From NCBI GenBank assembly GCA_016206155.1, contig JACQSC010000001.1:71105-125370 (forward strand): a stretch of DNA of 54,266 nucleotides, read 5' to 3'. The notes beneath the pieces are model-generated. The model was given only the letters and a program-made list of their open reading frames with translations. It was not told the origin of the DNA and did not search any database. Shown here in pieces: positions 36,130 through 53,362 of the stretch. Each line of letters starts with the position of its first letter. Within the stretch, counting starts at the first letter, position 1. The position numbers and the translations under genes were made by a program. Origin of the DNA: Candidatus Uhrbacteria bacterium. GTDB lineage: Bacteria > Patescibacteriota > Patescibacteriia > JACQRZ01.

Positions 36130-37617
36130 GTGACAAATACTCACGGTTCTGGTAGCATGAGAATGGAAGGCGGTCATATGAGATTTCAAGAGCTTGAACA
36201 AGCTGTATCTGCATATAACCCCGAAGCCGATCTGGAAATGATAAGGCTTGCTTATGATTTTGCGGAAAGCGCGCATCGCGGCCAAGTGCGGAAAACAGGC
36301 GAGGATTACATCCAGCATCCACTGAAAACAGCACACTATCTTTCGCGAATGCAGGTTGATGACGCGACGATCATCGCAGCGCTTCTGCACGAAGTGCCAG
36401 ATCTTACAGGGGTCACGATTGACGATATTCACAAGAATTTTGGCGCCGATATTGCGACGCTGGTCGACGGTGTAAGCCGCCTTGGCAACGTCAAATATCG
36501 CGGGATCGATCGTTACGTTGAGAATTTGCGGAAGATGTTTGTCAGTATCGCGCAGGACACGCGGATTATTCTCATTAAATTTGCCGGTCGCATCCACAAT
36601 CTTGAAACACTGGCCATCCTGCCCGAGCAGAAGCAGCTGCGGATCGCAACCGAGGTACTCGAGATCTATGCGCCGATTGCCGATCGTCTGGGTATCGCAT
36701 TTCTGAGAGGAGAGCTGGAGGATCGCGCGTTTCAGTTTGTCTATCCGGAAGAATATCGGCGCGTCACGACGCTGGTTGAGCCGCATCTGCGGCAGAAAGA
36801 GCAATACCTGGATCGTGTGCGCGAAATTCTCGAGCAGCATCTTGCCGATGGGGAGATTGAGGCTGTATCCATCTCAAGCCGCGTCAAACGATTGTTTTCG
36901 ACGTACAAAAAAATGGAAACTCTTGGGCTGACAACCGTAGAGGGGCTCTACGACCTTGTTGCCATGCGCGTTATTGTTCCAACCATTGCCGACTGCTACG
37001 CGGCGCTAGGGGTTATTCATCAATATTGGAAGCCACTCAAGGACCGCATTAAGGATTATATCGCACAGCCCAAGCCGAACAATTATCGCTCTCTTCACAC
37101 GACGGTATTTTGCGAAGACGGGCAGATTGTCGAATTTCAGATTCGAACGCCCGAGATGCAATATGAGGCGGAGGTGGGCATTGCGGCGCACTGGCATTAT
37201 ACCGAATCGCAGAAAACATCGAGAAAAATCACCGCGAAGCAGCTGGACTGGGTTCAAGAGATATTAAAATTTCAAGGAATTTCCACAACGACCGACCAGG
37301 AATATCTCAAGGTGCTCAAGCTTGATATCTTCCAACACCGTATTTTTGTATTCACGCCAAAAGGAGATGTTATCAATCTTCCGGATGGCTCAACGCCGGT
37401 TGACTTTGCCTATCACATTCATAGTGATGTGGGACGGCGCTGTTCGGGCGCGCGCGTGAATGATGTGCTTGTTCCGCTTGAGACACCACTGAAAAGCGGG
37501 GATGTTGTGGAAATTATTATTGAAAAAAACAGAAAAGCGCCAAGCATCGATTGGCTCACGTTCGTCAAAACGCATATTGCGCGCAGCCATATCAAGCAGC
37601 AGCTGCGCCGAAGATAA
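36130..37617 (+). CDS. RelA/SpoT-homologue (p)ppGpp synthetase/hydrolase, short form (HD, synthetase, TGS; no ACT/RRM)
   Basis: HD domain (HPLKTAHYL...LLHEVPD), synthetase region ([16 protein letters not shown]), and TGS ([24 protein letters not shown]). The real start is probably the ATG at 36157 or 36178. Confidence 0.9.
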
Positions 37618-37633
37618 TTTACTCAACTCTGTC

Positions 37634-38974
37634 ATGCCGCGCGCACTTCGCAGAATCATCTTTACGCTTTTTGTCCTTCTTTTTATCATTACGGCAACAA
37701 CGCTTTTGTTTTACGCAAGCGGCTATCGGTACCATGTTGGAAAGCGAGTGATTGAAAAGACCGGCAAATTGATCGTGGAAACCCAGCCACGCGGGGCGCG
37801 GATTATCGTTGCGGGCGCAGCAGTCCAACCCCTCCAGACACCGACAAGCATTTCATATCTTCTCTCGGGTGAGTATGAGCTCACCATTGAAAAGGATGGG
37901 TATTTTCCTGTACGCAAGCGCATCTCTATCGCGCCGGGTGTCAGTACTGTTGTCAATGATATTGTTCTGATCAAAAAAGAAGAACCGCGTCTGCTTATTG
38001 GCACCGACGGTGTGAAGGAGGCCATATCCATCGCCGACATCATTGTCATGCATGACGGCAAACGAGTGTTCGATTTTGACGTGTATCCGGAGCGGTTGAG
38101 CGAGCGCTTTGCCGCATCCGAGCCTATTGGGGTGTTGCGAATTTCCGAGAGTGGAGCGCAGAGCGCAATCAAAACAGAACGCGGGTGGAGTATTAGCAGT
38201 AAAGGGGAGGAGATTTTTTTCGAGAAGGAGGACTCTTCAATTTTGGATATACGATTTGCAAAAGGATCGGATGAAGCGTATGCGCGCACCGCGCAGGGTA
38301 TTGCGCGGTTTGAACCTGCCAAACGCGCATTTATATTACTCGTAAAACGCACGGATATCGTTTCATATGTTGTCACCGGAACCTCTCTTTTTCTTTTCAG
38401 GGAGATACTCGGCAAGGGACTTGTACTTGAGGAGGTTGGATTACCGAGCGGGGCGAACGTACGAACAATTTCTGACTTACCGGCGATTACCGACATTCTC
38501 GAGAGTTCTGACGGAACGCTTGTTCTGCAAGGTATTGGCAAGTCGCTCTATCTCTTTGATGCGCGCGCGCAGCAAGCGGCTTTTCAACTGGTGAGCGATG
38601 CGCGCGCGGTCGTATTTACCAACAAAGAGCGATTCTTCTCATTCAATGATTTTGAAATTTGGGAGCATTTGTTTTCTCATGAGCGCTATAGCCGTTCTCT
38701 TGTGACGCGTAAAAGCAACCCCATCGTCACTATCCTTCCCTTTACAACACGCCAACTCATGGTGACGGTGGCGCAGAACGGGGAGCTGCACCTCAGACGG
38801 CTCGGCGCGCGAGAGAGCGGAGAGCTCCTCCTTGCAACATTCGACGCCATAGTCGGCATTGCCTTGAATCAAAAAGAGGACACGCTTTTTATAGTCGGAT
38901 CCATCAATGGAAAACAAGGAATCTACGCCATGACCCTTATTGAGGAAGAGCAGGTATTTCCGCTTGTGAAGTAG
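37634..38974 (+). CDS. PEGA-domain membrane-anchored protein
   Basis: ATG at 37634 (MPRALRRIIFTLFVLLFII), a TM helix, then a PEGA domain (LIVETQPRGARIIVAG...YELTIEKDGYFPVRKRISI). The track ORF from 37502 overlaps rel. Confidence 0.75.
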   Translation: MPRALRRIIFTLFVLLFIITATTLLFYASGYRYHVGKRVIEKTGKLIVETQPRGARIIVAGAAVQPLQTPTSISYLLSGEYELTIEKDGYFPVRKRISIAPGVSTVVNDIVLIKKEEPRLLIGTDGVKEAISIADIIVMHDGKRVFDFDVYPERLSERFAASEPIGVLRISESGAQSAIKTERGWSISSKGEEIFFEKEDSSILDIRFAKGSDEAYARTAQGIARFEPAKRAFILLVKRTDIVSYVVTGTSLFLFREILGKGLVLEEVGLPSGANVRTISDLPAITDILESSDGTLVLQGIGKSLYLFDARAQQAAFQLVSDARAVVFTNKERFFSFNDFEIWEHLFSHERYSRSLVTRKSNPIVTILPFTTRQLMVTVAQNGELHLRRLGARESGELLLATFDAIVGIALNQKEDTLFIVGSINGKQGIYAMTLIEEEQVFPLVK

Positions 38975-40414
38975 TTACTGTATGGGAGCGATCTCAGACT
39001 GTTGAGCGGTTTGCGCAAGTGATGGCGGGAGGTCGGTGCCCAGAATAATAAGAAAGTCCGCGCCGGAGACCGAGTCGAGCTCCGGAGAATACGGATCATA
39101 AATACTTTCTCCCCTGAGGGTGTCTGCCAGGAATTTTTTTGTCAATGGTTTGTTGCCTTGTGAAAGATCGAAAACAAGTGTTTTTTGGTAGGTTCGCTCG
39201 CGGGCATTTTCGACCGATGCAACCGTAAACTCGTATCGCTTCAAAAGCGCGGCTGTTTTGTTTCCGATGCCATCAAGCGTAGTGCCGTTGCGGATAATAA
39301 CCGTGCTATCCTTGCCGATGGTGCGCATGTCGTCGTCGGGATATTCGGTAAAAATCCGTTGAACTTTCGCCTGAAGCGTCCCAAAGCTGCTATCGCGCGG
39401 GCGTAAGACATAGGCGCCGTCAATCATCTCAGAGACCAGGAGACCATTGACGTCATCATCAAAGACAACCGAAACGATATCGCGATCATCTACTTTCCGC
39501 AAAGCATTTCCCATGGCAAGCAACTGCCACACTTCCATGTTTGTAGATATATTTTCTTTCAGTGTGCCAAGAATCTCGCCTACCTTCTGAGGACGGAAAA
39601 AAAGAGTTGTGGAGAACATCTTTTCCTTTACTGCCGTTATGATTTTTTGCTGCCGGCGGCTTCGCGCAAAATCAGATCCTTCATTGTTGTTTAGGCTGTG
39701 GCGCGAACGGACATACATCAGCGCGCGCTGGCCATCCATTGTTTGCGGTCCGGCGTCAAAAGATATCGTCTGATATTTTTTATCAAGCGTGGGATATTTA
39801 TAGTCGGTAAAACTATTGTCAACCGTAATAGGGATACCGCCAAGAATGTCGACAATATCGGCAAAGCCCTGGAAATCGACGCGAACAAAATAGGGGATCG
39901 AGACGCCAAGGACCTGTTCCACGGTCTTTCGCGCAAACTCGCCGCCATATCCTTCTTGGATCGTCTCGCCAAAGGCGTTTGCGTTGTTTATTTTTCGCCA
40001 GCCATAGCCATCGATTGGTATCAGAAGGTCGCGTGGGATGGAAAAAAAGGCAACGCGTCCGGTTTTTGGCACGATGCTTGCAAGCATAATGGTGTCGGTA
40101 AGGTCTGCGCCCTCATGATTTCCGCCGCCGATGCCAAGAAGGAGCACATTAACGCGACCGTCATCAGAAACGATATCATTGTTTGCGTTCTCGGCAAGGC
40201 CGCGAAGAGGGGGAATGCTGGTGAGCGCATTCCATGTTTGAGAAAGCGCCGACCCTTCATCTTGCGCAGTTTGATATGAGAATACCGCGGTTCCTCCAAG
40301 CAAAAGAAAAAAGATCGAGCAAGCGGTGAGGATTTTTGGAAGAGGGGAGCGGTAGGTTTGGTATGCGGGAAGGATGGTCGGCTTTTTGATCAGGTTAATG
40401 GGTGAATGTTCCAT
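38975..40414 (-). CDS. LytR-CpsA-Psr (LCP) family protein
   Basis: VNVLLLGIGGG...DTIMLASI...FSIPRDL LCP core. The ATG at 40414 (MEHSPINL) is preferred. Its stop abuts the PEGA gene stop. Confidence 0.85.
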   Translation of the reverse strand: MEHSPINLIKKPTILPAYQTYRSPLPKILTACSIFFLLLGGTAVFSYQTAQDEGSALSQTWNALTSIPPLRGLAENANNDIVSDDGRVNVLLLGIGGGNHEGADLTDTIMLASIVPKTGRVAFFSIPRDLLIPIDGYGWRKINNANAFGETIQEGYGGEFARKTVEQVLGVSIPYFVRVDFQGFADIVDILGGIPITVDNSFTDYKYPTLDKKYQTISFDAGPQTMDGQRALMYVRSRHSLNNNEGSDFARSRRQQKIITAVKEKMFSTTLFFRPQKVGEILGTLKENISTNMEVWQLLAMGNALRKVDDRDIVSVVFDDDVNGLLVSEMIDGAYVLRPRDSSFGTLQAKVQRIFTEYPDDDMRTIGKDSTVIIRNGTTLDGIGNKTAALLKRYEFTVASVENARERTYQKTLVFDLSQGNKPLTKKFLADTLRGESIYDPYSPELDSVSGADFLIILGTDLPPSLAQTAQQSEIAPIQ

Positions 40415-40490
40415 AAAAAAACAATGCTCTCGTGAATTGACAGCTGATATGGGTGAGTATACACTAGTGATGCGCGCGACACAAGAGCGA

Positions 40491-40530
40491 GCACCCTTCT
40501 TACTCAGTTTGTTAGAGAATTGCGTTTTCA
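40491..40530 (+). pseudogene. 5' half of a second tRNA-like gene (outer tRNA), degenerate
   Basis: GCACCCT..ACTCAGTTTGTTAGAGAATTGCGTTTTCAC aligns with the D-arm to anticodon of tRNA-Val. The acceptor GCACCC pairs with GGGTGC at 40683-40688. Confidence 0.5.
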
Positions 40531-40546
40531 CCCCGTTAGAAATTTT

Positions 40547-40790: not shown

Positions 40791-40846
40791 TTTGTCCAGT
40801 ATAATATGTGTATTGGACAAAATTGGTATTTTTTGTCCAATATAAG
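40791..40846 (+). promoter_or_regulatory. promoter/operator-like repeats upstream of the AAA+ ATPase gene
   Basis: TTTGTCCA-gTATAAT (40791-40805), inverted TTGGACAAAA (40813-40822), and TTTTGTCCAA-TATAAG (40831-40846). Confidence 0.4.
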
Positions 40847-40855
40847 CAAAATAGT

Positions 40856-42133
40856 ATGCTTAAAAACATAGTTTTTGATCAAAAACTGCAAAAAGAGGAA
40901 CTTTTATCTTTTCAGTACATAGCGCGAACCAAAGAGCCATTTGCTAAAAAATGGTTTGATTCAAGTTTGATTAAAGTAGTTCTGGGTCCCAGACGAGCAG
41001 GAAAGTCTATTTTTTCTCTCATGCTTTTAAGAGATCGGCCATTTATGTACTTCAATTTTGATGATGAGGTAGTTGCGGGCATGAGCGGTATAGTTCCCAA
41101 TGAGCTTATGAAGGAATTGCATGCCGTCTACGGCCCTGAAAAGACCGTTCTTTTTGATGAAATACAGAACCTTCCGAATTGGGAGCTGTTTGTCAATCGT
41201 TTGCATAGAGCGGGCTACAATCTTGTGCTTACCGGATCGAACGCACGGTTGCTTTCGCAAGAACTGGCAACGCATCTGACTGGAAGGCATATGCCCATAG
41301 AAATAATGCCATTCAATTTTGATGAATTTCTTAAGGCAAAAAAATTCACACTAGATCCGCAATACGCCTCCTTGCCACAAAAGCGAGGTGAGCTTTTGAT
41401 GCTTATGGATGATTTTTTATTGCGCGGCGGGTTTCCGGAGGTTGTCATCAGTAATCTTAGCGCACATGATTATCTCGAGGTGCTGTTTGACGCTCTGCTT
41501 TTCAAAGATGTGGTTAAAAGGCATAGAGTTAAATTTTCGACCCAAATAGCAAATTTGGGCGGACATTTAATAAACAATTTTGCCAGTTTGTATACGGTGC
41601 GCAAGCTGCTCGAGGTTTTGAATTTAAAGAGCGCCTCTACTACGGAAAAGTACATAAGTTATCTAGAAGAAGCATATCTTGTTTTTTCATTGCTTCGGTA
41701 TTCCCCGAAATCCGTGCAACGCATAAAGTCTCCTCGCAAGGTCTATGCCGTGGATAATGGTTTTGTAAGCGCCAAAGCAATTCAACATTCTCCGGACAAG
41801 GGTAAGCTCATGGAAAATCTTGTTTTTACAGAGCTTGTCAAGCGAGGACAAAAACCGAACAGAGATTTGTTTTATTATAAGACGCGAAATAATCGCGAGG
41901 TTGATTTCGTTTTAAAAAATGGAACAGATGTTATAGAACTCATACAAGTTTGTTACGAATCGATGCGTTCAGATGTAGAGCAGCGGGAAACAAAGGCTTT
42001 GGCTGAGGCGGGTGGCGAGTTGAACGTACAAAAACTCACGGTGCTTACATGGGACGAGAAGAGGGAAATAAAAAAAGACGGCAACGTCATACGAGTTACG
42101 CCCCTCTGGGGATGGCTGCTTGATAAGAATTAG
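40856..42133 (+). CDS. AAA+ ATPase with a C-terminal DUF4143-like domain
   Basis: Walker A GPRRAGKS and Walker B LFDEIQ. The ATG at 40856 (MLKNIVFDQ) is preferred over the track's GTG at 40808. Confidence 0.8.
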   Translation: MLKNIVFDQKLQKEELLSFQYIARTKEPFAKKWFDSSLIKVVLGPRRAGKSIFSLMLLRDRPFMYFNFDDEVVAGMSGIVPNELMKELHAVYGPEKTVLFDEIQNLPNWELFVNRLHRAGYNLVLTGSNARLLSQELATHLTGRHMPIEIMPFNFDEFLKAKKFTLDPQYASLPQKRGELLMLMDDFLLRGGFPEVVISNLSAHDYLEVLFDALLFKDVVKRHRVKFSTQIANLGGHLINNFASLYTVRKLLEVLNLKSASTTEKYISYLEEAYLVFSLLRYSPKSVQRIKSPRKVYAVDNGFVSAKAIQHSPDKGKLMENLVFTELVKRGQKPNRDLFYYKTRNNREVDFVLKNGTDVIELIQVCYESMRSDVEQRETKALAEAGGELNVQKLTVLTWDEKREIKKDGNVIRVTPLWGWLLDKN

Positions 42134-42135
42134 CT

Positions 42136-43089
42136 ATGAAAATATTTATCACGGGCGCGGCAGGGTATATCGGCGTGATGCTTGCGGAACGATTCGCAGA
42201 GCGTGACGATATCGAGGAGATAGTTTGCCTTGACAAGAATCCGATCACGCCCGAACTGTTAGCGCTTCCCAAGATTCTCTATCTGCGCGCAAACACATCA
42301 GATGACACATGGCAGGGAATCGCCGCGGAGCGCAAGCCCGATGTTGTCATTCACTGTGCGTGGCAGATTCGGGAGTTTTATTTTAGGAAAAAGCTTCATC
42401 ATGCGTGGAATATCTGTGGCTCGCGCAATGTCTTTGCGTTTGCTCTCTCTTGTGCACGACATCTGATTTATCTCTCATCTGTTGCGGTGTACGGAGCATA
42501 TTCCGATAACCGTGTCGATAGGCCATTTACCGAAGAGGATCCTATGCGTGAAGACGAATATCTCTACGGTGTTCAAAAAAAACAGTCGGAGCAGGATCTT
42601 TATGATATCTGCCAAAAATCCCTATCGCCAATATGCGCTACGGTGTTGCGCATTTGCTCTGTGGCCGGTCCGCGATACAAAAGAGCCAAAAAGGGATTTA
42701 CTTTGCAAAATTTGCTTGCGCTCCTTCCATTTATTCCTATTGCAAATCAGGAGTGGGGGAGACAGTTCGTGCATGAGGAGGATCTTATGGGAATTATTGA
42801 CAATGTCGCCAACGAGCCCCCTCAGAGCGCCCATCGCGTGTTTAATGTTGCCCCGCCGATGTATCTGCGAGCCAGTGAAATTGTGCACGCATATGGCAAG
42901 CGAGCATTTCATGTGCCAAAAGAACTTGTTCGTCTTGGATTTTTTGTTCTCCGCCATCTCTCGCTTGGCCGCCTGCCCACCTCCCGTGGCGGCTGGCGGT
43001 TTTATGTGTATCCGGTTGCCGTGGACGGGGGGGCGATAAAAGGCATGCTTGGCAATAATTTTATCCAGTCTATTCTCTATAATAGGTAG
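42136..43089 (+). CDS. NAD-dependent epimerase/dehydratase (extended SDR)
   Basis: ITGAAGYIG Rossmann motif and catalytic YGVQK. Confidence 0.85.
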   Translation: MKIFITGAAGYIGVMLAERFAERDDIEEIVCLDKNPITPELLALPKILYLRANTSDDTWQGIAAERKPDVVIHCAWQIREFYFRKKLHHAWNICGSRNVFAFALSCARHLIYLSSVAVYGAYSDNRVDRPFTEEDPMREDEYLYGVQKKQSEQDLYDICQKSLSPICATVLRICSVAGPRYKRAKKGFTLQNLLALLPFIPIANQEWGRQFVHEEDLMGIIDNVANEPPQSAHRVFNVAPPMYLRASEIVHAYGKRAFHVPKELVRLGFFVLRHLSLGRLPTSRGGWRFYVYPVAVDGGAIKGMLGNNFIQSILYNR

Positions 43090-43154
43090 AATTATAGAAT
43101 TTTATCGATTATGCAAGAAAAAATGGATAAAAATGAACAAAAAAATGATACAGT

Positions 43155-43961
43155 ATGGGACACTTATGTATCGTGAACGCTTATAAAAAATACCTTCATT
43201 ATCGTGAGCTGATCTGGAGCTTTGTTCGGCGGGATATCAACGCGCGATACAGGGGGACGATCATGGGGGTTTTTTGGTCTGTCATTCATCCGCTCGCGAC
43301 ATTTTCAGTTTACTTGCTGGTGTTTGGATTTTTTCTCAAGATACGCATGCCGCAGAGTACATCAGTGCTGGATTTTGCTCTCTACTTCAGCGCGGGATAT
43401 TTTCCGTGGGTTTTTTTCAGCAACGCTGTTACGCGAGCGGCAACCTGCATCGTTGACAATAGAAACTACATCAAAAAGGTAGCCTTCCCATCTGAGATTT
43501 TCCCCTTTTCACTTATGCTTTCAGAAGGCGTCTCGCTTTTGATAAGCATTACGATTGTGGTGATATTTTCAATCTCTGTCCATGGATTTTCATTTTTACT
43601 TCTTTTGCTCCCAATCGTTATTCTCTTGGAAATGATTTTTGTTCTCTCGTGCGTCCTGCTCGCCTCGGCAATAACGGTTTTTTTTCGAGATATTCCCCAG
43701 CTTCTCAATTCGGTTTTTATGGTGTGGTTTTGGCTGACTCCTATTGCCTATACCGTCGATCTGATCCCAAAGAAGCTCGAGATTCTTGTCTTTGCAAATC
43801 CGATGCATCACGTCCTTGCATTATATCGCTCCATGCTGTTAAATAGCAGCATGCCGAACATGAAAGTGCTGTTGTTATTCACGCTATTTTCACTCACGTT
43901 GTTATATGTTTCGCTGTTGATTTTTCAGAGAGCAAAGCGACATTTCAGTGATTTACTATGA
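43155..43961 (+). CDS. wzm: ABC-2 type polysaccharide exporter permease (Wzm-like)
   Basis: N-terminal YRELIWSFVRRDINARYRGTIMGVFW hallmark and 6 TM helices. It is followed by the ATPase gene with a 4-nt overlap. Confidence 0.88.
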   Translation: MGHLCIVNAYKKYLHYRELIWSFVRRDINARYRGTIMGVFWSVIHPLATFSVYLLVFGFFLKIRMPQSTSVLDFALYFSAGYFPWVFFSNAVTRAATCIVDNRNYIKKVAFPSEIFPFSLMLSEGVSLLISITIVVIFSISVHGFSFLLLLLPIVILLEMIFVLSCVLLASAITVFFRDIPQLLNSVFMVWFWLTPIAYTVDLIPKKLEILVFANPMHHVLALYRSMLLNSSMPNMKVLLLFTLFSLTLLYVSLLIFQRAKRHFSDLL

Positions 43962-45937
43962 ATGCAATTGAAGTTCGTAATCTTTCAAAAAAGTTTGTCT
44001 ACTATCCCTCGCAGCGTGATCGATTATTTGACATGGTATCGGGAGGTAGAACAAAAAAAGGGAATGACTTCTGGGCGTTAAAGGATATTAGTTTTGAGGT
44101 GCCAAAAGGTACAACTTTCGGCATTATTGGACAAAATGGATCTGGAAAAAGTACATTATTAAGCATTCTTGCCGGTGTTCTCCGGCCAACATCGGGATCA
44201 TATACCGTTAATGGAAAAGTGGCTGCAATTTTAGAACTTGGTTCCGGATTTCATCATGAGTTTACCGGGCGAGAGAATGTGTATATGTATGGAGCGATAC
44301 TTGGTCTATCGCGAGCAGAGATCGGTAGTCGTTTTGATGACATCATAGATTTTTCCGAACTCCATGAATTTATCGATCGACCGTTATATACCTATTCTTC
44401 CGGCATGGTTGTTCGGCTCGCTTTTTCTGTTGCCGTCAACGTTGACGCGGATATATTGATTATCGATGAAGCGCTGGCTGTTGGGGATGCGCTGTTTCAG
44501 CATAGATGCTTTTTGAAAATTCAAGCGCTTCAAGCGGCCGGGAAATCTATTTTATATGTTGGTCATGACATAGAAACACTTCGCAGTATATGTAACGCCG
44601 CGCTTCTTCTTGATGGAGGAAAAATAATCCGACAGGGGCACACAGCGAACGATGTCGTTAATTTTTACGCAGCTCTTATTAAAGAACGCGAACAACAGTA
44701 TAGAGAAAAATCGGCAAGCCCGAAAAAAAATATTTACAACGGCGCGTTCATTGCAGACAATGAACACCATGCTAAAAAAAGGGGTATACGATTTGGCACA
44801 AAAGATGTTGAAATTCAAAACATAGAGATGCTGGGTAATGGACTTCAGCCAAAAAATAATTTTCAATCAGGTGAAAATGTTCATATACGAATATCGTTAC
44901 GATCTAACAAAGATATTGAAAGCGGGTTAAATATAGGGTTTGTCGTCAGGAGTAACTATGGAGAGGTCTACGGCATAAACACACATTGGCTCAAGGTAGA
45001 CGTCACGCCAAAAAGATGCGGTGATACATTTGAGGTCGAATTTGTTCAAAAATTGAATCTTGGAGCAGGCATGTATACGTTATCACCAATTGTTGCCTAC
45101 AAATATTCAGCAGATGACGAGGCGCCACTGGATTGGCTGAATGACTGGTTTACGTTCACTATACAATCAAATGATATTTTTCTTGGGTGCGCCAATCTGC
45201 AATCGAGCGTTTCTGTTTCTGGTCAGACAATGCCGCAAATCATGAATACGGATGAGTTAGCAACATGCCATAGAAATGTTTTATCATTGTATGGCGCTTC
45301 GGGAATAGCCGCGCGCATACTTGAACAATGGTCAATTCCAGTATCGGATTATGAAATACTTGCTAATGGAATTCACGAAAAAAAACCTGCAAAAATTTTG
45401 GAAATAGGAACATTCGTAGGTGTGTCGACATTTCTCATGTCTGCGCTTCTTGATGATACGCAACACATATATTCTATAGATCCAAATCTTTTACTGATCG
45501 ATGAAATTGAAGCTGTTGATGGCGCGCAGGAGCTTCTCCCACGGTCAATTCGAACTCAAGATATTGCAAGAGCGGTAAAAAACAGGCATTTTGCCGAAAA
45601 GAATATAGATTTTCTTGAAGGCTGTTTAAATTATGATTCATCTTATAGCCAGGTAGGCGGTATTCGAAAACTACTTCCCGACCTGCTGGACCAGAAGGTA
45701 ACATTTGATTTTATTTTTATCGATGGCCTTCATTTTACAGATGCTGTTTTATCAGATCTTTGTGCCTCCGTTAAAATTCTCGCAAAAGAAGGTGTTATTT
45801 TTCTCCATGACGGAAGGGGAAGATGGGCCGAAGAGGTGTTGTTTGGGGTTTGCAAGTTTATCGAGAAGCATCAACACTATGAATTGACCCGTTTTCCGGA
45901 TAGCTCCATTGTGAAATTACGAAATACGTATGAATGA
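43958..45937 (+). CDS. wzt: Wzt-like ABC ATPase with a Wzt_C-type carbohydrate-binding module and a C-terminal class I methyltransferase-like domain
   Basis: Walker A GQNGSGKST, signature YSSGM and Walker B ILIIDEAL. A beta-sandwich region spans about aa 275-415. About aa 430-659 carry ILEIGTFVGVSTF...FDFIFIDGLH...LHDGRGRWAEEVL. Confidence 0.85.
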   Translation: MNAIEVRNLSKKFVYYPSQRDRLFDMVSGGRTKKGNDFWALKDISFEVPKGTTFGIIGQNGSGKSTLLSILAGVLRPTSGSYTVNGKVAAILELGSGFHHEFTGRENVYMYGAILGLSRAEIGSRFDDIIDFSELHEFIDRPLYTYSSGMVVRLAFSVAVNVDADILIIDEALAVGDALFQHRCFLKIQALQAAGKSILYVGHDIETLRSICNAALLLDGGKIIRQGHTANDVVNFYAALIKEREQQYREKSASPKKNIYNGAFIADNEHHAKKRGIRFGTKDVEIQNIEMLGNGLQPKNNFQSGENVHIRISLRSNKDIESGLNIGFVVRSNYGEVYGINTHWLKVDVTPKRCGDTFEVEFVQKLNLGAGMYTLSPIVAYKYSADDEAPLDWLNDWFTFTIQSNDIFLGCANLQSSVSVSGQTMPQIMNTDELATCHRNVLSLYGASGIAARILEQWSIPVSDYEILANGIHEKKPAKILEIGTFVGVSTFLMSALLDDTQHIYSIDPNLLLIDEIEAVDGAQELLPRSIRTQDIARAVKNRHFAEKNIDFLEGCLNYDSSYSQVGGIRKLLPDLLDQKVTFDFIFIDGLHFTDAVLSDLCASVKILAKEGVIFLHDGRGRWAEEVLFGVCKFIEKHQHYELTRFPDSSIVKLRNTYE

Positions 45938-46754
45938 TTTCTCGCGATCGGATTACGATAAGGTGTTTTTTGATTCAATAAAAGACGGATCACTATCTTC
46001 GGCAAAAATAATTGTTCCAAAGATAATTGATGTATTTCAACCAAAGAACGTGATTGATGTTGGATGTGGTACCGGATCATGGCTTTCAGTGTTTGAAGCC
46101 GCGGGCATCGATATTTTTGGTGTTGACGGAGGTTCCATTGACGAGAGTCAGTTACTGATACCGAGGGATAAGTATGTATCAATGGATGTGTCATCAGATA
46201 TTCATTTTGATCGTACATTTGATATAGCCCTTTGTTTAGAAGTTGCTGAACATCTTCCACCCGAGAAGTCGGAAAAGTTTATAGGTTTTCTTGCGTCGTT
46301 AGCTCCTATTGTAATTTTTTCCGCCGCTATTCCCGGGCAAGGGGGAACAAACCATATCAACGAGCAATGGCCCATATATTGGATCGAACTATTTAGCGCT
46401 CATTCATTCGATGTGCTTGATATTTTTAGAACTATTTTTTGGGATAATCAGGATATTGAGCCGTGGTATCGTCAAAATCTCTTTGCTTTTGTTAGCAAGA
46501 AATACCCTCATTTTTCTCATAATCATCCAGCAAGTGGTCAGATTTCTGCACTTGTTCATCCAGAAATTTTTTCTCGACGCGTAGATTCGATCATCACGGA
46601 AAAAGATTCGATCATCACGGAAAAAGATTCTATCATCACGGAAAAAGATTCGATCATCGCTAATTGCAATGCGCATCTTGACTACATCGCTCATTCATTT
46701 TCATGGAAGGTCACAAAGCCGCTAAGATATTTGAAGAGATTGACGCGATTGTGA
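45930..46754 (+). CDS. class I SAM-dependent methyltransferase with a C-terminal heptad-repeat tail
   Basis: VIDVGCGTGSWL motif I. The tail is DSIITEK x3.7 followed by SFSWKVTKPLRYLKRL. Confidence 0.85.
   Translation: MNDFSRSDYDKVFFDSIKDGSLSSAKIIVPKIIDVFQPKNVIDVGCGTGSWLSVFEAAGIDIFGVDGGSIDESQLLIPRDKYVSMDVSSDIHFDRTFDIALCLEVAEHLPPEKSEKFIGFLASLAPIVIFSAAIPGQGGTNHINEQWPIYWIELFSAHSFDVLDIFRTIFWDNQDIEPWYRQNLFAFVSKKYPHFSHNHPASGQISALVHPEIFSRRVDSIITEKDSIITEKDSIITEKDSIIANCNAHLDYIAHSFSWKVTKPLRYLKRLTRL
46584..46660 (+). repeat. 21-bp tandem repeat x3.7 (GATTCGATCATCACGGAAAAA) encoding DSIITEK heptads
   Basis: Units start at 46584, 46605 and 46626, with a partial unit at 46647. Unit 3 differs by one synonymous change (tcg->tct). 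Confidence 0.9.
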
Positions 46755-46765
46755 ACAGAAATTTT

Positions 46766-48835
46766 ATGGCTCAAAAAGATGAAAAGGACTTATTTTTTTC
46801 CATCGCAATTGCATCCGCCGGTGAATTGCCCGCTATAGGAAATACGGTAGCGCTAGACCTGTCTGAAAGAGCTTTAAAGGCTAGAGATGAGCAGATTGGC
46901 CGTCTAGAATTGGAGGTAGTAGAACTAAAAAAACAGATTCAGTCAACAGCAATAGAACTAGTACAAATTAAGAAAACAATTCACTGGAAAATATCAACGG
47001 CATATGTTTTTTTTGATTACCTGTTTCCACGCAATTCAAAAAGGCGAGCTGCGGTTTTATCATTTATTTTTTTTATAAAAAAAAACATCCATTTTGTGCA
47101 GAATTTATTTCGGAAAAATAGTAGGAAAAATTTACACCAAGACGAACCAGTCAAGGGAGGCGTTGCGATTTATATTGGTTCGAACAGTCAGCAATGTCTG
47201 GGTGAGGTTGCAGAGTTATTGCGCTGTGGGTTTGAAGAAATAGGCATGAATGTTAGATGCGGGAACGAAAAATTGGGATTTTTTGATGATGTGGAATGGC
47301 ACATAATTATAGCGGCTTGCGAATTTTTTTTCAATACCCCAGAGGGCCAGGGATTAGCAGAAAAATTGCCAAGAAATTCCATACTTTTTATCTTAGAGCA
47401 ACCTTATTCACATTGGTATACGCAAATAGAATCATTATTCAAATTCGCCCACGCATTGTGGAGCCCGGATTATTCCACTTGCAGACTATTGGAAGCTCAA
47501 AACTATAAGCATGTCGTATTTATGCCACTCGGATATTCTGCAAAATTTAATCTGTATAAGGAAATTCCCATTCTCCCGAACAATACGTTCACGAGCTTCC
47601 TTCCCGATAGCACAAAAAAATATTCCTTTTCCCATCATCCATGGCACGAAAGACCAATTGATATAACAATTTTCTGTCACTTGACCGAAAGGAGAAACGA
47701 ATTTTTTGCGAAAAATGCCCACATATTTTCTAAATATAATTGCTATTTTGTATTCGTAAATGCCGCTAACGGATTAGTTGTTGCAAGTGATAGTCGCCCC
47801 CCGGATACGGAAACAACAAATGGCATTATTCAACGAAGCAAAATATTGATAAATATCCATAGAAGTTCATTGCAGTATTTTGAATGGCATAGGATTGTGA
47901 TGCAGGGCGTTTGGAACAAAGCGTTGATAATCAGTGAAAAATGTGAGGACGGCTTTCCCTTTCAAAATGGCAAAGACTATGTTATGTGCGAGATCGAAGA
48001 AATTGCAGATAGGGTTGATTTTTTTTTGTCACCTAAGGGTGAAGTGTCAGCCAACGAAATGACATCAAGCGCATATCGTAAATTAACGACACAGTGCCAA
48101 ATCAGTGATTTTCTAAACAAAAATATATCCACATTTTCTACTAAAAAAGCAAGAGATATTCACAAGGACGTATTGGCGATGTACAAGCATTATGGTATTG
48201 ACGAGACAATATTACGACAATGGTCAATTTTCGAGGACGATTGGGAAATTATTGATACAGAGTTGCAACAAGCAGCCAGTCTTAAAAATGTATTAGAGGT
48301 AGGCACGTTTATGGGCGTTTCTACTTTCTGCATTGCACAGCGTTTAATTAATAATGACCAGCACCTATACACCATTGATCCGAACGCATTATTGGAAACA
48401 GAGGTGCCGTCAGTTGACAAGGAGTTTGCTGGTGGGAGGTACACGTTATTAGGAAGGCCTCAGGATATTGCAAAGAATATTTTTCGAGCGACTGGTTTGA
48501 AAAGAAATATACACTTTCTTCAAGGATGTCTCGACTATCAGCGATCAAATGACGGCAGCCAGAATTTAAGGAGGTGGTCTTTAGATTTTACCAAGAAAGA
48601 AATGAAATTTGATTTTATTTTTATTGACGCAAACCATTGCGCAGATGCGGTATATTCCGATGTTAGCTCGTCGACAAAAATTCTTGCTGATGGCGGAGTA
48701 ATTCTCTTGCATGATGGAAGGGGGCGATGGGCAGAGGAAGTGTTATATGGCATCTGCAAGTTCTTAGAGGAAAATAATAATTACACCGTATCCCGTCGAT
48801 TAAATGGCACAATACTAAAGCTGGAAAGAAAATGA
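46766..48835 (+). CDS. WbdD-like multidomain protein: N-terminal coiled coil, GT-B-like central region, C-terminal methyltransferase-like domain
   Basis: Coiled coil RDEQIGRLELEVVELKKQIQ plus IHWKIS. The central region has ILINIHRSSLQYFEWHRIVMQG. The C-terminus (VLEVGTFMGVSTF...FDFIFIDANH...LHDGRGRWAEEVL) is paralogous to the Wzt C-terminus. The ATG at 46766 is preferred. Confidence 0.75.
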   Translation: MAQKDEKDLFFSIAIASAGELPAIGNTVALDLSERALKARDEQIGRLELEVVELKKQIQSTAIELVQIKKTIHWKISTAYVFFDYLFPRNSKRRAAVLSFIFFIKKNIHFVQNLFRKNSRKNLHQDEPVKGGVAIYIGSNSQQCLGEVAELLRCGFEEIGMNVRCGNEKLGFFDDVEWHIIIAACEFFFNTPEGQGLAEKLPRNSILFILEQPYSHWYTQIESLFKFAHALWSPDYSTCRLLEAQNYKHVVFMPLGYSAKFNLYKEIPILPNNTFTSFLPDSTKKYSFSHHPWHERPIDITIFCHLTERRNEFFAKNAHIFSKYNCYFVFVNAANGLVVASDSRPPDTETTNGIIQRSKILINIHRSSLQYFEWHRIVMQGVWNKALIISEKCEDGFPFQNGKDYVMCEIEEIADRVDFFLSPKGEVSANEMTSSAYRKLTTQCQISDFLNKNISTFSTKKARDIHKDVLAMYKHYGIDETILRQWSIFEDDWEIIDTELQQAASLKNVLEVGTFMGVSTFCIAQRLINNDQHLYTIDPNALLETEVPSVDKEFAGGRYTLLGRPQDIAKNIFRATGLKRNIHFLQGCLDYQRSNDGSQNLRRWSLDFTKKEMKFDFIFIDANHCADAVYSDVSSSTKILADGGVILLHDGRGRWAEEVLYGICKFLEENNNYTVSRRLNGTILKLERK

Positions 48836-48838
48836 TTT

Positions 48839-49594
48839 ATGCGAAGACGCGCTGTTTATACTCTTGTGCACAATGAATCGATATTTCTCCCCATCTGGCT
48901 AACATACTACAGCAGATATTTCGATTACTCGGACATATATGTGATCGACCATCAGAGTACGGACGGAAGCACCACAAAATTACCGTGCAATGTTATTCAA
49001 GTGACGCATGAATTTGTGCACGATGATTTGTTCATGCATGAAATGATAACGAAATTTCAGTATAGATTACTGGAGGGGTATAAATATGTTTTATATGTTG
49101 ATTGCGATGAGTTTGTTTACCATCAAGATGGTCTGGATGCCTACATCGATTCGATGGATCGTCCATGCATAATGGCAAACGGCTATGAACTAGTCCACAT
49201 GAGAAATCGAGAAGCGCCAATTAACCTATCTCAGCCGATTCTAAATCAGCGAAATTATTGGATTCGAAGCAAATACTACTCTAAACCAGTTTTATCAGCG
49301 ATTCCATTTTATTGGGGCATAGGAAGGCATGGCGCAGAAAACGGTGGTTATTTTGATGAAAATTTTTTTCTTTTACATTTAAAAAGAATGGATTATGATA
49401 TTGCATTAAAAAAAAATGAATTGACGGCAGTTTCAAATATTAGTCCTATCAACAAAAAATATGCGTGGGGTTATCAATGTTGGCTCACAGGTCAAGGATT
49501 TGACTCCTGGTTTTATACAGATTTCTATCCAAATTATCTTGATGCGCATATTGAGCCAATCATCGATAAAGTTAAAAAATTTATGCCACTTTAA
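48839..49594 (+). CDS. putative glycosyltransferase (GT2/GT92-like fold)
   Basis: IYVIDHQSTDGS and DxD-like YVDCDEF. Confidence 0.6.
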   Translation: MRRRAVYTLVHNESIFLPIWLTYYSRYFDYSDIYVIDHQSTDGSTTKLPCNVIQVTHEFVHDDLFMHEMITKFQYRLLEGYKYVLYVDCDEFVYHQDGLDAYIDSMDRPCIMANGYELVHMRNREAPINLSQPILNQRNYWIRSKYYSKPVLSAIPFYWGIGRHGAENGGYFDENFFLLHLKRMDYDIALKKNELTAVSNISPINKKYAWGYQCWLTGQGFDSWFYTDFYPNYLDAHIEPIIDKVKKFMPL

Positions 49595-49609: not shown

Positions 49610-50332
49610 ATGAACAATGAGGATCTTATCTTTGATACCAGAAATCCTAATCGAAAAGCTGAAGTGTCAGTAGTTTTGGTTTTTAATAGCTCAAATTATC
49701 ATATCGACATAAAATCAGTTCTGGAGTCAATAGAAGGACAAACTTTGAAGAGCTTAGAAATTATCATTTATGATAATGGATCAAACACATATAGACTTAA
49801 GTCGCTCCGATCATATTTATCTCGTAGTAGGCAATTCGGCGGAGGGGCGCTATTGCTAAATTTTATTAGTCAAAGAACTTTTTCGCAAATTTCAAGCATG
49901 ACTCTAAAATATGCCACGGCGCAATATATCTTATTTCTTGATGACAATATTTTTCTCTACCCGCGTTGCATTGGCTCATTGTTAAGCGCACTAAAAAATT
50001 CTAATGCGAGTTTTACTCATTGTTATATAGAAATATTCGGCGCATCTAGAGGAATATTCAATGCATATCCATGGAACGATCAATCGTTAATGGTCGGTGA
50101 ACCGGCTGAGAAATTTGTGCTAATAAAAAAAGCTATTTTGGAAAAGTCTAGAAATTACTCAGAGGATTGTCTTAAATCGGAAAACTATCAATTTTGGTCA
50201 AAGGTTAACGCGATCGGAGGCGACGGAATTCTGGTTCCTGAAATTTTGATGAGATGCAAGATTAATTCGAACACAAAATATAGACCGATAGAGTCACAAC
50301 TTGAACGAACGATATCGTATGAATATTTTTAA
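49610..50332 (+). CDS. family 2 glycosyltransferase-like protein
   Basis: VSVVLVFNSS...IIIYDNGSN...ILFLDDNIFL (DxD). Confidence 0.7.
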   Translation: MNNEDLIFDTRNPNRKAEVSVVLVFNSSNYHIDIKSVLESIEGQTLKSLEIIIYDNGSNTYRLKSLRSYLSRSRQFGGGALLLNFISQRTFSQISSMTLKYATAQYILFLDDNIFLYPRCIGSLLSALKNSNASFTHCYIEIFGASRGIFNAYPWNDQSLMVGEPAEKFVLIKKAILEKSRNYSEDCLKSENYQFWSKVNAIGGDGILVPEILMRCKINSNTKYRPIESQLERTISYEYF

Positions 50333-51056
50333 TGAAAACCGACAAATCTGCTTCTCCACTCCGCGGCGGCTTACCGAAGACACGTCGTGGCATATTCATA
50401 TTCCGCTCGCATTTTATTTAGTTCAACAGTTGCGACCAAAGGTAATTGTTGAGCTCGGTGTGGGAGCTGGCGATTCATACGGCGCATGGTGTCAAGCAGT
50501 CACGGAATTAGAAATTTTTGCAACGTGCTATGGTTTTAATATTACATCTAATTGTAAACATGGGCGCAATATTAACGAGAGTAAATTCGAAGAGCTTGTA
50601 TCCTATCATGATCAACTCTACGGTAAATTTTCTAAACTAAATCATACAACCGCCCATGGCGCACTTAGTTATTTTGATGACGGCGCCATAGATCTACTGC
50701 ATATTAACGGTTTAAATGTCGATGAATTTTTAAATTGCGATTTCGATCTATGGCTTCGAAAGATGAGTAAAAATGGAATAATACTAATACACGGTATCAA
50801 TGTGAAGAATCAGAATATATGTTTCTCTAAGTTTAGCGCGCATTTAAGAAAGAATTTTCCTTATATTGAATTTCCGCATGGTTTCGGCCTTGGTATCGCA
50901 GCTATTAATCAGTTTGCACCAGCCGCCATAAAATGTTTTTTTAATAAAAATGGTGTGGAAATCGGAAATATAATTCGTTTTTTTTATCTACTAGGTCGGA
51001 GCGTGCTTCTTTATTCCAATGAAAAAAAATGGCCGTTATCTGGCGGGCATGAATAG
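50319..51056 (+). CDS. class I methyltransferase-like protein (Methyltransf_24/CmcI-like)
   Basis: SWHIHIPLAFYLVQQLRPKVIVELGVGAGDSY...IDLLHINGLN...IILIHG. It is paralogous to 52460-53362. The ATG at 50319 is preferred over the track's TTG at 50301. Confidence 0.7.
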   Translation: MNIFNENRQICFSTPRRLTEDTSWHIHIPLAFYLVQQLRPKVIVELGVGAGDSYGAWCQAVTELEIFATCYGFNITSNCKHGRNINESKFEELVSYHDQLYGKFSKLNHTTAHGALSYFDDGAIDLLHINGLNVDEFLNCDFDLWLRKMSKNGIILIHGINVKNQNICFSKFSAHLRKNFPYIEFPHGFGLGIAAINQFAPAAIKCFFNKNGVEIGNIIRFFYLLGRSVLLYSNEKKWPLSGGHE

Positions 51057-51096: not shown

Positions 51097-52329
51097 ATGA
51101 GTAACTTTCAATCCAATATGGACAAATGCACAATTAAACCAATTGCATTTTATCTTCCCCAGTACCATCCAATTCCAGAAAACGATCGCTGGTGGGGGGA
51201 TGGTTTTACTGAGTGGGTGAATGTAAAAAAAGCAAAGCCTCTATTTAACGGGCATTATCAGCCGCATGTTCCGTCGGATACTATTGGGTATTATGATTTG
51301 CGAGATGATAGAGTACGAGAGCGCCAGGCAGAAATTGCTAAACATTACGGCATCTATGGATTTTGCTATTATTATTACTGGTTTAACGGTAAAAAATTGC
51401 TGGATTACCCATTATCAGAGGTACTTCGTCTTAAGCGTCCCGATTTTCCATTTTGCGTATGTTGGGCGAACGAGAACTGGACAAGAAGATGGGATGGGAC
51501 AACTGGTGTTGTTTTAATGAAGCAGTCGGAGCAAAGTAATGATGCAATAAAAATTATTTACGATTTATTACCAATTTTTAATGATAATCGCTATATTCGC
51601 ATTGGCGGGAAACCACTATTTATCGTCTATAGGGCAGATTTACTTCAAGATCCACTCAGGGTTACTCAAGCATGGCGAAGAATATGTGCCGAGAATGGCA
51701 TGGGCGGAATTTACTTATGTTGTGTGCGGTCATTTGATGTAATTGATCCAAAAATTTTTGGATTCGATTCAGCGATTGAAATGCCCCCACATCAGTACAT
51801 GAGAAGTCTAGAGATAAGGAATTTTCACGCATATCATGCTAATGAATTTAAAGGAAAGGCATATGACTACGGAAAAATTCTAAATACTGCGCGCACTAGA
51901 GCAGAACATGAGTATACGTTGTTTAGGGGAATTATGCCATCATGGGATAATACAGCTCGTTTAGGTAAAAACGCATTAGTTTACATCAATGTTGATTCGG
52001 AGGAATATCGATCATGGCTTCAATATATTTGTGCCTATACTACCATCATGAACGAGCCAGATAAGCAGTATATTTTTATAAACGCATGGAATGAATGGGG
52101 TGAGGGATGTCATCTTGAGCCAGATAAAAAAAACGAATACAGATATTTGGAGATAACGAAGGATGTTGTCGGAGACAATGAGAGATCACTGCAAGCGATT
52201 ATTTTTAATCTCCAATCAGCTACCGAAAAACTTCTGATCTCGGCTGACGATTTATGCGCAATAAAAAAAACAATTTTCCGGAAGATTTCAAAAAAAATTT
52301 ATGCTTTTTATGATAAAGTTTTTAAGTGA
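51097..52329 (+). CDS. WbsX-family (GH99-like) glycan biosynthesis protein
   Basis: IAFYLPQYHPIPENDRWWGDGFTEWVNV...CWANENWTRRWDG...NAWNEWGEG hallmarks. Confidence 0.8.
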   Translation: MSNFQSNMDKCTIKPIAFYLPQYHPIPENDRWWGDGFTEWVNVKKAKPLFNGHYQPHVPSDTIGYYDLRDDRVRERQAEIAKHYGIYGFCYYYYWFNGKKLLDYPLSEVLRLKRPDFPFCVCWANENWTRRWDGTTGVVLMKQSEQSNDAIKIIYDLLPIFNDNRYIRIGGKPLFIVYRADLLQDPLRVTQAWRRICAENGMGGIYLCCVRSFDVIDPKIFGFDSAIEMPPHQYMRSLEIRNFHAYHANEFKGKAYDYGKILNTARTRAEHEYTLFRGIMPSWDNTARLGKNALVYINVDSEEYRSWLQYICAYTTIMNEPDKQYIFINAWNEWGEGCHLEPDKKNEYRYLEITKDVVGDNERSLQAIIFNLQSATEKLLISADDLCAIKKTIFRKISKKIYAFYDKVFK

Positions 52330-52459: not shown

Positions 52460-53362
52460 ATGCCAACAGTACATCACAATATGTATTTTCTTCGAGAGCC
52501 TCGTCTGCTAACAGATGTCAATTCGTGGCATATGCATATTCCATTCGCTTTTTATCTTATAGGAATCTTGCAACCAAGACTTATTGTAGAACTCGGCACT
52601 CATAGAGGCGATTCATACTGTTCATTTTTGCAGGCTGTCGCGGATCTCGGCATAGATACTAAGTGTTATGCCGTGGATCACTGGACGGGTGATCAACATT
52701 CTGGATATTACGGAGATGAGGTCTATAATGAGTTGCGACAATACCATGATAAATTCTATTCCGACTTTTCACAATTATTAAGAATGACATTTGATGAAGG
52801 GCTTCAATATTTTTCGGAAAAAAGCATTGATTTTCTCCATATTGACGGAGAGCATACATATGAGGCGGTCAAGCATGATTTTGATTTATGGCTGCCAAAG
52901 ATGAGCGAGAGCGGGGTTCTTCTTCTTCACGATACGGATAAAAAGGACAAAAATTTTGGCGTTTATCGACTATGGGAAAAGCTAAAAAAAATATATCCAT
53001 CAATAAATTTCTCGTACGGTAATGGTCTTGGGATTCTGTTTGTCGGAACTAAAATTTCTTACGAGGTTATCAATGATATAACAAAGAGCTTCCCCCCAGA
53101 TTTTTTTAGAGCACTAGGGGAAAGAGTTTACTTCAAAAAAAAACATGAACTACTCAACTATCAATTAGATGCCACCACCGCAGAGCTCCAATCCACCACC
53201 GCAGAGCTCCATATGATAGAGCGAACTATTTTATGGCGCGCGGCAAGAAAGTTTTATTTCCTGGTCGATAAGTTATTTCCATCTAATACACGGAGGCGTC
53301 AATGGTATAGTCTTATGGTTGAGCGTATTAAGGGTGGCAGAGGCGAGCATAATCTGATATGA
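52460..53362 (+). CDS. class I methyltransferase-like protein with a C-terminal coiled-coil/heptad tail
   Basis: SWHMHIPFAFYLIGILQPRLIVELGTHRGDSY...IDFLHIDGEH...VLLLHD. The tail is TTAELQS x2 followed by TILWRAARKFYFLVDKLFP. Confidence 0.8.
   Translation: MPTVHHNMYFLREPRLLTDVNSWHMHIPFAFYLIGILQPRLIVELGTHRGDSYCSFLQAVADLGIDTKCYAVDHWTGDQHSGYYGDEVYNELRQYHDKFYSDFSQLLRMTFDEGLQYFSEKSIDFLHIDGEHTYEAVKHDFDLWLPKMSESGVLLLHDTDKKDKNFGVYRLWEKLKKIYPSINFSYGNGLGILFVGTKISYEVINDITKSFPPDFFRALGERVYFKKKHELLNYQLDATTAELQSTTAELHMIERTILWRAARKFYFLVDKLFPSNTRRRQWYSLMVERIKGGRGEHNLI
53174..53215 (+). repeat. 21-bp tandem repeat x2 (ACCACCGCAGAGCTCCAATCC) encoding TTAELQS
   Basis: The same repeat family as 54179-54249 in the next gene. 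Confidence 0.85.

Follow-up and report, generated by a model that had tools for sequence, protein, structure and literature searches.

A 54,266-nucleotide stretch of the Candidatus Uhrbacteria assembly GCA_016206155.1 (contig JACQSC010000001.1; the whole stretch is called the window below, and coordinates are positions within it) contains a gene on the + strand, 43958–45937, whose 659-aa product unites three parts: the nucleotide-binding domain (NBD) of Wzt, the ATPase of an ATP-binding cassette (ABC) glycan exporter; a Wzt_C carbohydrate-binding module (CBM), the predicted cap reader; and an O-methyltransferase domain. Cap-dependent ABC export is the textbook quality-control mechanism for O antigens, S-layer glycans and wall polymers. 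The window protein is best understood as a variant of such a system that arose by a one-step gene fusion in a conserved wzm-wzt-methyltransferase module. Our preferred reading, to which we give slightly better than even chances, is that an active glycan O-methyltransferase, the cap writer, is here tethered to the cap reader and exporter Wzt.

Results

Domain architecture of the fused Wzt

The fused gene is an uninterrupted open reading frame (ORF) of 659 codons plus stop, and Pfam placed all three domains above cut-off. ABC_tran matched aa 41–173 (73.8 bits, exceeding the gathering cut-off) within an NBD that covers aa 1–250 (43958–44707, + strand) and carries Walker A GQNGSGKST (aa 58–66), the ABC signature YSSGM (aa 146–150), Walker B ILIIDEAL (aa 166–173, including the catalytic Glu171) and an H-loop at His203. 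As shown by phmmer, the best match of the NBD in the PDB was the Wzt of Aquifex aeolicus (8dku/7k2t; E 7e-74, aa 4–240). Wzt_C (PF14524) matched aa 278–413, encoded at 44789–45196 (+), with 87 bits against a cut-off of 30.4 (E 1.6e-24), and Methyltransf_24 (PF13578) matched aa 481–618 with 51.9 bits against a cut-off of 26.3 (E 1.5e-13). The complete methyltransferase domain, aa 429–659 (45242–45934, +), is supported by Pfam, AlphaFold2 (AF2) and Foldseek and contains the motifs LEIGTFVGVST (aa 481–491), FIFIDGLH (aa 585–592) and FLHDGRGRW (aa 615–623). Only the ~15-aa linker, aa 414–428 (45197–45241, +), placed by junction alignment with the related loci L031 and L035, separates it from the CBM, and no helical spacer or coiled coil is present between the two.

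Directly upstream lies wzm (43155–43961, +), which encodes a 268-aa ABC-2 permease subunit (Pfam ABC2_membrane, E 3.2e-15). The stop of wzm and the start of wzt overlap by 4 nt; the match of this permease to the NCBIfam Wzm/RfbD-like model was below cut-off. The intact ATPase motifs, the adjoining wzm and the jelly-roll Wzt_C module identify the fused protein as a Wzt. Its matches to the NCBIfam TagH and galactan-Wzt equivalog models remained under cut-off, so that it is an equivalog of neither. An earlier note, made from the sequence alone, had described this gene as a three-part Wzt; the architecture is real, and the coordinates, domain order and motifs given there were all correct. Likewise, its assignment of the C-terminal ~230 aa to the class I methyltransferases agrees with both the Pfam match and the modelled fold described below.

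Fold and conserved residues of the methyltransferase domain

The AF2 model was restricted to aa 421–659; combined alignments of Wzt and stand-alone methyltransferases for a full-length model were dropped because the LEIG motif was misplaced against the ILELG segment of the NBD. The restricted model had a predicted local distance difference test (pLDDT) score of 92.7 and a predicted template modelling (pTM) score of 0.91, with a pLDDT of 68 for the first 10 residues (aa 421–430). Its best PDB neighbour in Foldseek was MeT1 (6g80/6g7d; E 2e-11, TM 0.63–0.70), followed by cation-dependent catechol, caffeoyl-CoA and norbelladine O-methyltransferases, and all 50 of the 50 best PDB matches were O-methyltransferases of the COMT/CCoAOMT/MeT1-like class, with probability 1.00. 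The modelled domain thus has the Rossmann-like fold of class I methyltransferases.

In an alignment of 42 members of the methyltransferase subfamily (full-protein numbering), the window domain keeps all five invariant residues (G484, G488, D508, D589 and H592) and all 12 near-invariant ones (L481, E482, P509, F587, V597, D600, L601, H617, D618, W623, V627 and G650). Motif I for binding S-adenosylmethionine (SAM), ExGxxxG, corresponds to E482, G484 and G488, and D508 is the acidic residue with which strand 2 ends; the alignment places all of these on the SAM-binding elements of YrrM and COMT. Two metal ligands of COMT, D141 and D169, correspond to D589 and D618, and the family conserves H592 and H617. 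These data indicate that the methyltransferase domain is probably active. Most other carriers of the subfamily are 500–1300-aa proteins in which the domain is N-terminal, and several of them (950–1284 aa) end in GT4-GT1 glycosyltransferase (GT) domains.

Split relatives and the fusion junction

The full-length Wzt was searched against 5.8 billion proteins, with the best 120 full-length matches examined, and the methyltransferase domain against 1.84 billion representatives, with the best 149 matches examined. The closest Wzt homologue in the former search was P0002, a 430-aa protein that is 66% identical and lacks a methyltransferase domain; the closest homologue of the methyltransferase domain in the latter was P0126, a stand-alone protein of 229 aa that is 62% identical. 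The genes for P0002 and P0126 share one contig, L031. There, AAA_14/DUF4143 is followed by a Wzm (71% identical), the 430-aa Wzt, a gap of 20 nt and the 229-aa Methyltransf_24 protein, and farther downstream by more methyltransferase and GT genes in common with the window. Loci L035 and L036 have the order AAA_14, epimerase, Wzm, a 433-aa Wzt, a gap of 3 nt and a 234-aa Methyltransf_24 protein. The Wzt of L035 is 62% identical to the corresponding half of the fused protein, and its methyltransferase is 55.5% identical to aa 433–659.

At the junction, L031 reads ...CCA TAA, 20 nt, ATG AAT GAT; L035 reads ...ACA TGA GTG ATG ACT; and the window reads ...CCG CAA ATC ATG AAT ACG. Gln427 (CAA, 45236–45238) aligns with the wzt stop codon of L031 and L035, and Met429 falls where the stand-alone methyltransferase gene of the relatives starts. 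In L035, one codon separates the wzt stop from the methyltransferase start, which shares its frame; from such an arrangement, one substitution in the stop codon is enough to yield the fusion. The two parts have diverged from their orthologues to a similar degree (62% identity for the methyltransferase domain and 66% for NBD plus CBM). These results indicate that the 659-aa ORF arose when wzt was joined to the methyltransferase gene directly downstream of it.

Among the 149 best matches, no other carrier of the methyltransferase domain had a Wzt NBD or CBM. When each methyltransferase region was used by itself, word-indexed searches retrieved no Wzt fusion besides the query, and a scan of genome contigs with the methyltransferase domain also yielded none, returning only distant relatives from Bacteroidota, Proteobacteria and others whose identity over most of the domain did not exceed 32%.

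A conserved wzm-wzt-methyltransferase module with independent fusions

In this Wzt clade, a methyltransferase was fused to wzt or encoded by the next gene downstream at all nine of the nine distinct loci examined, and these wzt-adjacent enzymes span four Pfam families. Methyltransf_24 is fused in the window and split in L031, L035 and L039; CmcI/RMNT (PF04989) is fused in L003 and L032 and split in L033; a Methyltransf_23/11 gene directly follows wzt in L038; and the next gene begins with an FkbM domain resembling Vibrio cholerae RfbT in L005, which is the same as L040 and comes from the same-family genome G012. The best 120 full-length matches included two NBD-Wzt_C-CmcI/RMNT proteins, P0012 (647 aa) and P0047 (630 aa). 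For P0006, a 423-aa Wzt that is sister to P0012, a gap of 14 nt separates the wzt gene from a stand-alone CmcI gene (L033), whose 214-aa product is 66% identical to aa 437–646 of P0012.

A maximum-likelihood tree of the NBD and CBM region paired the window Wzt (P0001) with the unfused P0002 (support 97/92) and the fused P0012 with the unfused P0006 (99/96), with P0047 placed apart. On its well-supported branches, the fused state has to have been gained or lost three times. The tree thus indicates that fusions of Wzt to methyltransferases arose independently and with different methyltransferase families.

Wzt_C was present in 52 of 401 sampled genomes of the same phylum, in open frames of 385–472 aa except for two, those of the window (661 aa) and of genome G314 (662 aa); the 35 Wzt_C frames of 301 Bacteroidota genomes were all 385–493 aa long and none was extended. 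Given only two long frames in the former sample and none in the latter, NBD-CBM-enzyme fusions are rare but recurrent. No account of a Wzt-CBM-methyltransferase protein turned up in the searchable literature, and the earlier note, too, was aware of no characterised example of the three-part architecture.

The long frame of G314 (L037:3010–4983, - strand; also G314:C32) encodes a 657-aa Wzt in which ABC_tran and Wzt_C are followed by a C-terminal GT2 domain (Glyco_tranf_2_4), and the next gene encodes a 1004-aa GT4-MT11-GT2 protein. This GT2 domain may be a tethered terminating glycosyltransferase. A 1010-aa protein of L033 (3430–6462) unites Methyltransf_24, WbsX and RgpF domains that the window keeps as separate consecutive genes (50301–51056, 51097–52329, 52460–53362 and 53359–end). 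Domain fusion and fission seem rampant across these clusters.

The putative cap-reading module

The CBM of the fused protein is homologous to the carbohydrate-binding domain (CBD) of A. aeolicus Wzt (6o14/8dky, E ~1e-7). The latter reads a 3-O-methyl-Man/Rha cap and holds the 3-O-methyl group in a pocket formed by Leu300, Thr346, Ala348 and Trp362; Trp362 is the pocket lid, and the W362L substitution abolished binding (PMC9445017). In the HMMER alignment, V329, S376, V379 and W393 of the fused protein correspond to L300, T346, A348 and W362 of A. aeolicus Wzt, respectively. The predicted pocket is therefore consistent with a methyl reader.

The glycan island and its surroundings

The window belongs to a contig of 125 kb; the host genome is 913,686 bp long and 94% complete, and all sampled relatives range from 0.7 to 1.5 Mb, sizes that agree with an organism of the CPR/Patescibacteria type. 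From about 44 kb on, the G+C content of the window drops from ~0.50 to 0.37–0.41. The low-G+C island lies wholly on the + strand and runs from an AAA_14/DUF4143 ATPase through an epimerase, wzm and the wzt-methyltransferase fusion to a Methyltransf_23 gene, a gene for a protein with coiled-coil, GT-like and Methyltransf_24 parts, two GT2 genes, Methyltransf_24, WbsX, Methyltransf_24 and RgpF; the last of these, a rhamnan synthesis gene, is cut by the end of the contig. The Methyltransf_23 protein (274 aa; 45930–46754, +; Pfam) is 46% identical to the product of an L031 gene, and its start overlaps the stop of the fused gene by 8 nt.

The window also encodes RmlB, dTDP-glucose 4,6-dehydratase (TIGR01181, 450 bits against a cut-off of 365), and RmlC is found elsewhere in the genome, outside the window. 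On account of the RgpF, WbsX and GT2 genes together with RmlB and RmlC, the glycan would be of the rhamnan type, and the island probably makes a wall or surface glycan that contains rhamnose and is methylated. Immediately upstream lie genes for a PEGA-domain protein (37502–38974, +) and for a LytR-CpsA-Psr (LCP)/LytR_C ligase (38975–40531, - strand). The position of these genes beside the island suggests that the wall, and not lipid A, carries the exported glycan.

At the 5' edge of the island, the AAA_14/DUF4143 ATPase gene occupies 40808–42133 in the window, with counterparts at L031:62–1360 and L035:171–5113. L035 has four copies or fragments of this gene, and the copies of the window and L031 are only 35% identical. 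The gene may mark a mobile or recombination-prone boundary beside a tRNA-Val locus.

Discussion

Proposed mechanism and the points against it

In the preferred reading, the tethered domain would be an active, SAM-dependent sugar O-methyltransferase. Its substrate would be a cytoplasmic lipid-linked glycan, probably rhamnose-containing, that is methylated at the transporter, most likely on its non-reducing terminal residue. The methylated end would be bound by the CBM on the same protein chain or on the other protomer of the Wzt dimer, and this binding would license export through Wzm, with writing, reading and export co-localised. That the enzyme works at the transporter is suggested by Rosetta-stone evidence, namely its fusion to wzt in the window and its adjacency to wzt elsewhere. 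The earlier note had offered two options for the third domain, an exporter that modifies or caps its own substrate and a catalytically dead fold that serves as a second recognition module; the first fits the active-looking fused enzyme, whereas the second is disfavoured, since the residues of the family are kept. Although the fused protein may do the same job as WbdD, it is not filed as a member of the WbdD family because it lacks the coiled-coil ruler.

Several points weigh against this reading. The island holds five methyltransferase modules, that is, four beyond the Wzt-linked one. The SAM-binding residues, which the earlier note had singled out together with those of the metal site, are in place (E482, G484, G488 and D508), but the metal site agrees with that of COMT only in part: D589 and D618 match two of the ligands, and the third, Asn170, aligns with Gly619, so that the domain may or may not be metal-dependent. 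Gly619 is not specific to the fusion, since LHDG is likewise found in two stand-alone orthologues, P0126 and the L035 methyltransferase. The 94%-complete genome yielded no SAM synthetase of either the bacterial (PF02773) or the archaeal (PF01941) type; in a set of this genome and 25 relatives, MetK was present in eight of the 26, and SAM is presumably scavenged or imported. The fusion may be selectively near-neutral, and it may be recent as well, being one point mutation from the L035-type state and found in one genome only. Finally, WzmWzt of A. aeolicus undergoes large nucleotide-driven CBD movements (PMC9445017), and a 26-kDa domain on the C-terminus of the CBD has to accommodate them.

Alternative explanations

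The alternative that survives best, which we regard as rather unlikely, assigns termination to another protein of the island. The gene at 46766–48835 (+) encodes a protein of 689 aa (710 aa if the start is at 46703) that, by BLASTP and Pfam, looks like a fusion of a coiled coil, a GT-like domain and a methyltransferase; its aa 478–707 are 44% identical to aa 429–654 of the fused Wzt (E 7e-56, BLASTP). Under this alternative, the coiled-coil protein would be a WbdD-like ruler and terminator, and the Wzt-linked methyltransferase, though active, would not write the cap; instead, it would methylate another position of the terminal sugar or internal residues of the chain on its way into the transporter. 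An N-terminal coiled coil joined to a methyltransferase domain resembles the terminators described in PMC3482155 and PMC11231755, makes this protein look more WbdD-like than the fused Wzt and counts against our reading, as do the number of methyltransferase modules in the island and the further methyltransferases in clusters that have a CmcI-fused Wzt. However, the methyltransferase whose position is conserved over the nine loci is the wzt-adjacent one, the L003 and L032 homologues of the middle domain of the coiled-coil protein occur without any methyltransferase, and the whole coiled-coil protein has no close homologue besides itself among the 1.84 billion representatives. These comparisons tilt the balance moderately towards the wzt-linked enzyme, over the methyltransferase of the coiled-coil protein, as the exporter's conserved partner.

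At three loci, the wzt-linked methyltransferases share 55–62% identity with one another, and each is ~43–44% identical to the domain of the coiled-coil protein. From these values, an origin of the Wzt methyltransferase as a recent duplicate of that domain was rejected; the paralogous domain of the coiled-coil protein predates the split of the three lineages. The middle domain of the coiled-coil protein (aa ~140–478) has stand-alone homologues with 37–41% identity at L003:257–1264 and L032:9885–10967; one of the two has a weak Glyco_trans_1_2 match, and neither has a methyltransferase domain.

According to a second alternative, the single ORF would be an error (a miscalled stop base or a consensus artefact) or an inconsequential recent read-through, and the locus would function as two proteins, as in its relatives. 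In its favour, the fused and the L035-type split states differ by one base only, and a fusion of this Methyltransf_24 subfamily to Wzt was seen in one genome only. However, the identical 659-aa ORF with the same neighbouring genes was found on two Logan contigs from separate runs, SRR12113422 and SRR12113390, which match the window at 100% identity without an indel over 42310–48930 (6621 bases) and 42391–48003 (5613 bases). Three assemblies from two assemblers and at least two runs thus agree base for base over 5.6–6.6 kb. The artefactual fusion of two genes by a frameshift, which the earlier note had raised as an objection, found no support at the assembly level, and an assembly or frameshift artefact is highly improbable. 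In addition, two other lineages have analogous Wzt-methyltransferase fusions, and a read-through product would itself be a fused protein in the cell. We therefore consider this alternative very unlikely. Least likely of all is a catalytically dead domain acting as a second glycan-recognition or scaffolding module, as the loss of the Asn of the COMT metal triad to Gly619 and the missing SAM synthetase might suggest, since the domain keeps motif I (E482/G484/G488), the ribose-binding acidic D508 and D589/H592/H617/D618, the same Gly occurs in stand-alone orthologues, and the synthetase is missing in most relatives too, which makes its absence not specific to this domain.

Implications

A broader possibility, which we consider less likely than not, is the following: across this large clade of cap-dependent exporters, the cap-writing methyltransferase may dock on the CBM dimer of Wzt even when it is separately encoded. 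The recurrent independent fusions, the invariant adjacency of wzt and methyltransferase and the interchangeable enzyme families point in this direction. If docking does take place, a freshly methylated chain end would be passed straight from writer to reader, the prototype model, in which the terminator cooperates with the polymerase but acts apart from the transporter, would need revision, and the fusion would provide a natural single-chain construct for the structure of a terminator-transporter complex.

An NBD-CBM-methyltransferase polypeptide with both split and fused sister versions constitutes comparative evidence for a wzt-adjacent methyltransferase that acts at the transporter, and the fusion is a ready-made stoichiometric writer-reader-motor construct for experiments. 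As it lies one mutation from the split state, it is useful rather than surprising. Bacteria of the candidate phyla radiation (CPR) type, with their tiny genomes, are thought to live attached to other cells. The locus described here is among the few concrete leads on the methylated, probably rhamnose-based surface glycans of such organisms.

Comparison with known systems

One of the closest known systems, the cap-dependent O-antigen transporter WzmWzt of A. aeolicus (7k2t, 8dku, 6o14/8dky; PMC9445017), has a homologous NBD, a homologous jelly-roll CBD and an adjoining Wzm gene. However, the CBD is the last domain of A. aeolicus Wzt (404 aa), whereas the window protein goes on into a 231-aa O-methyltransferase. 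The tiny genome of the window host and the LCP ligase gene by the island also make it unlikely that the exported glycan is a lipopolysaccharide O antigen, unlike that of A. aeolicus.

The methyltransferase domain itself is structurally nearest to MeT1 (6g80, 6g7d), yet shares only ~15% sequence identity with it. MeT1 of Mycobacterium hassiacum is described as a SAM-dependent O-methyltransferase that acts on a methylated mannose oligosaccharide (PMC9883506). It is a stand-alone cytoplasmic enzyme for the reducing end of a polysaccharide that is not exported, whereas the window domain is fused to Wzt. The CmcI/RMNT fusions P0012 and P0047 and the GT2 fusion of G314 share the layout of the window protein, with a glycan-modifying enzyme after the CBM, but differ from it in enzyme family and origin; all of them are uncharacterised sequences from metagenomes.

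The logic of the proposed system is that of Escherichia coli O8/O9a (Klebsiella O5/O3), in which a methyl-type end modification by WbdD halts polymerisation and a Wzt module reads it (PMC3482155). WbdD, however, is a separate, coiled-coil, membrane-associated protein that acts with the polymerase and is not part of Wzt (PMC3482155), whereas the Wzt-linked domain of the window lacks a coiled coil and is of the Methyltransf_24/COMT-like group. In the S-layer glycan cluster of Geobacillus stearothermophilus, the genes are ordered wzm-wzt-wsaE, wsaE overlaps wzt at stop and start, and WsaE begins with a cap-forming O-methyltransferase domain (PMC2943079). WsaE and ORF6 of Klebsiella pneumoniae O7 (PMC11231755), both known methyl-capping terminators built as methyltransferase-(coiled coil)-GT-GT proteins, match the layout of methyltransferase followed by GT4-GT1 seen in the subfamily to which the window domain belongs. 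In WsaE and ORF6 the methyltransferase is fused to the polymerising glycosyltransferases, whereas in the window it is fused to the ATPase and CBM of the exporter.

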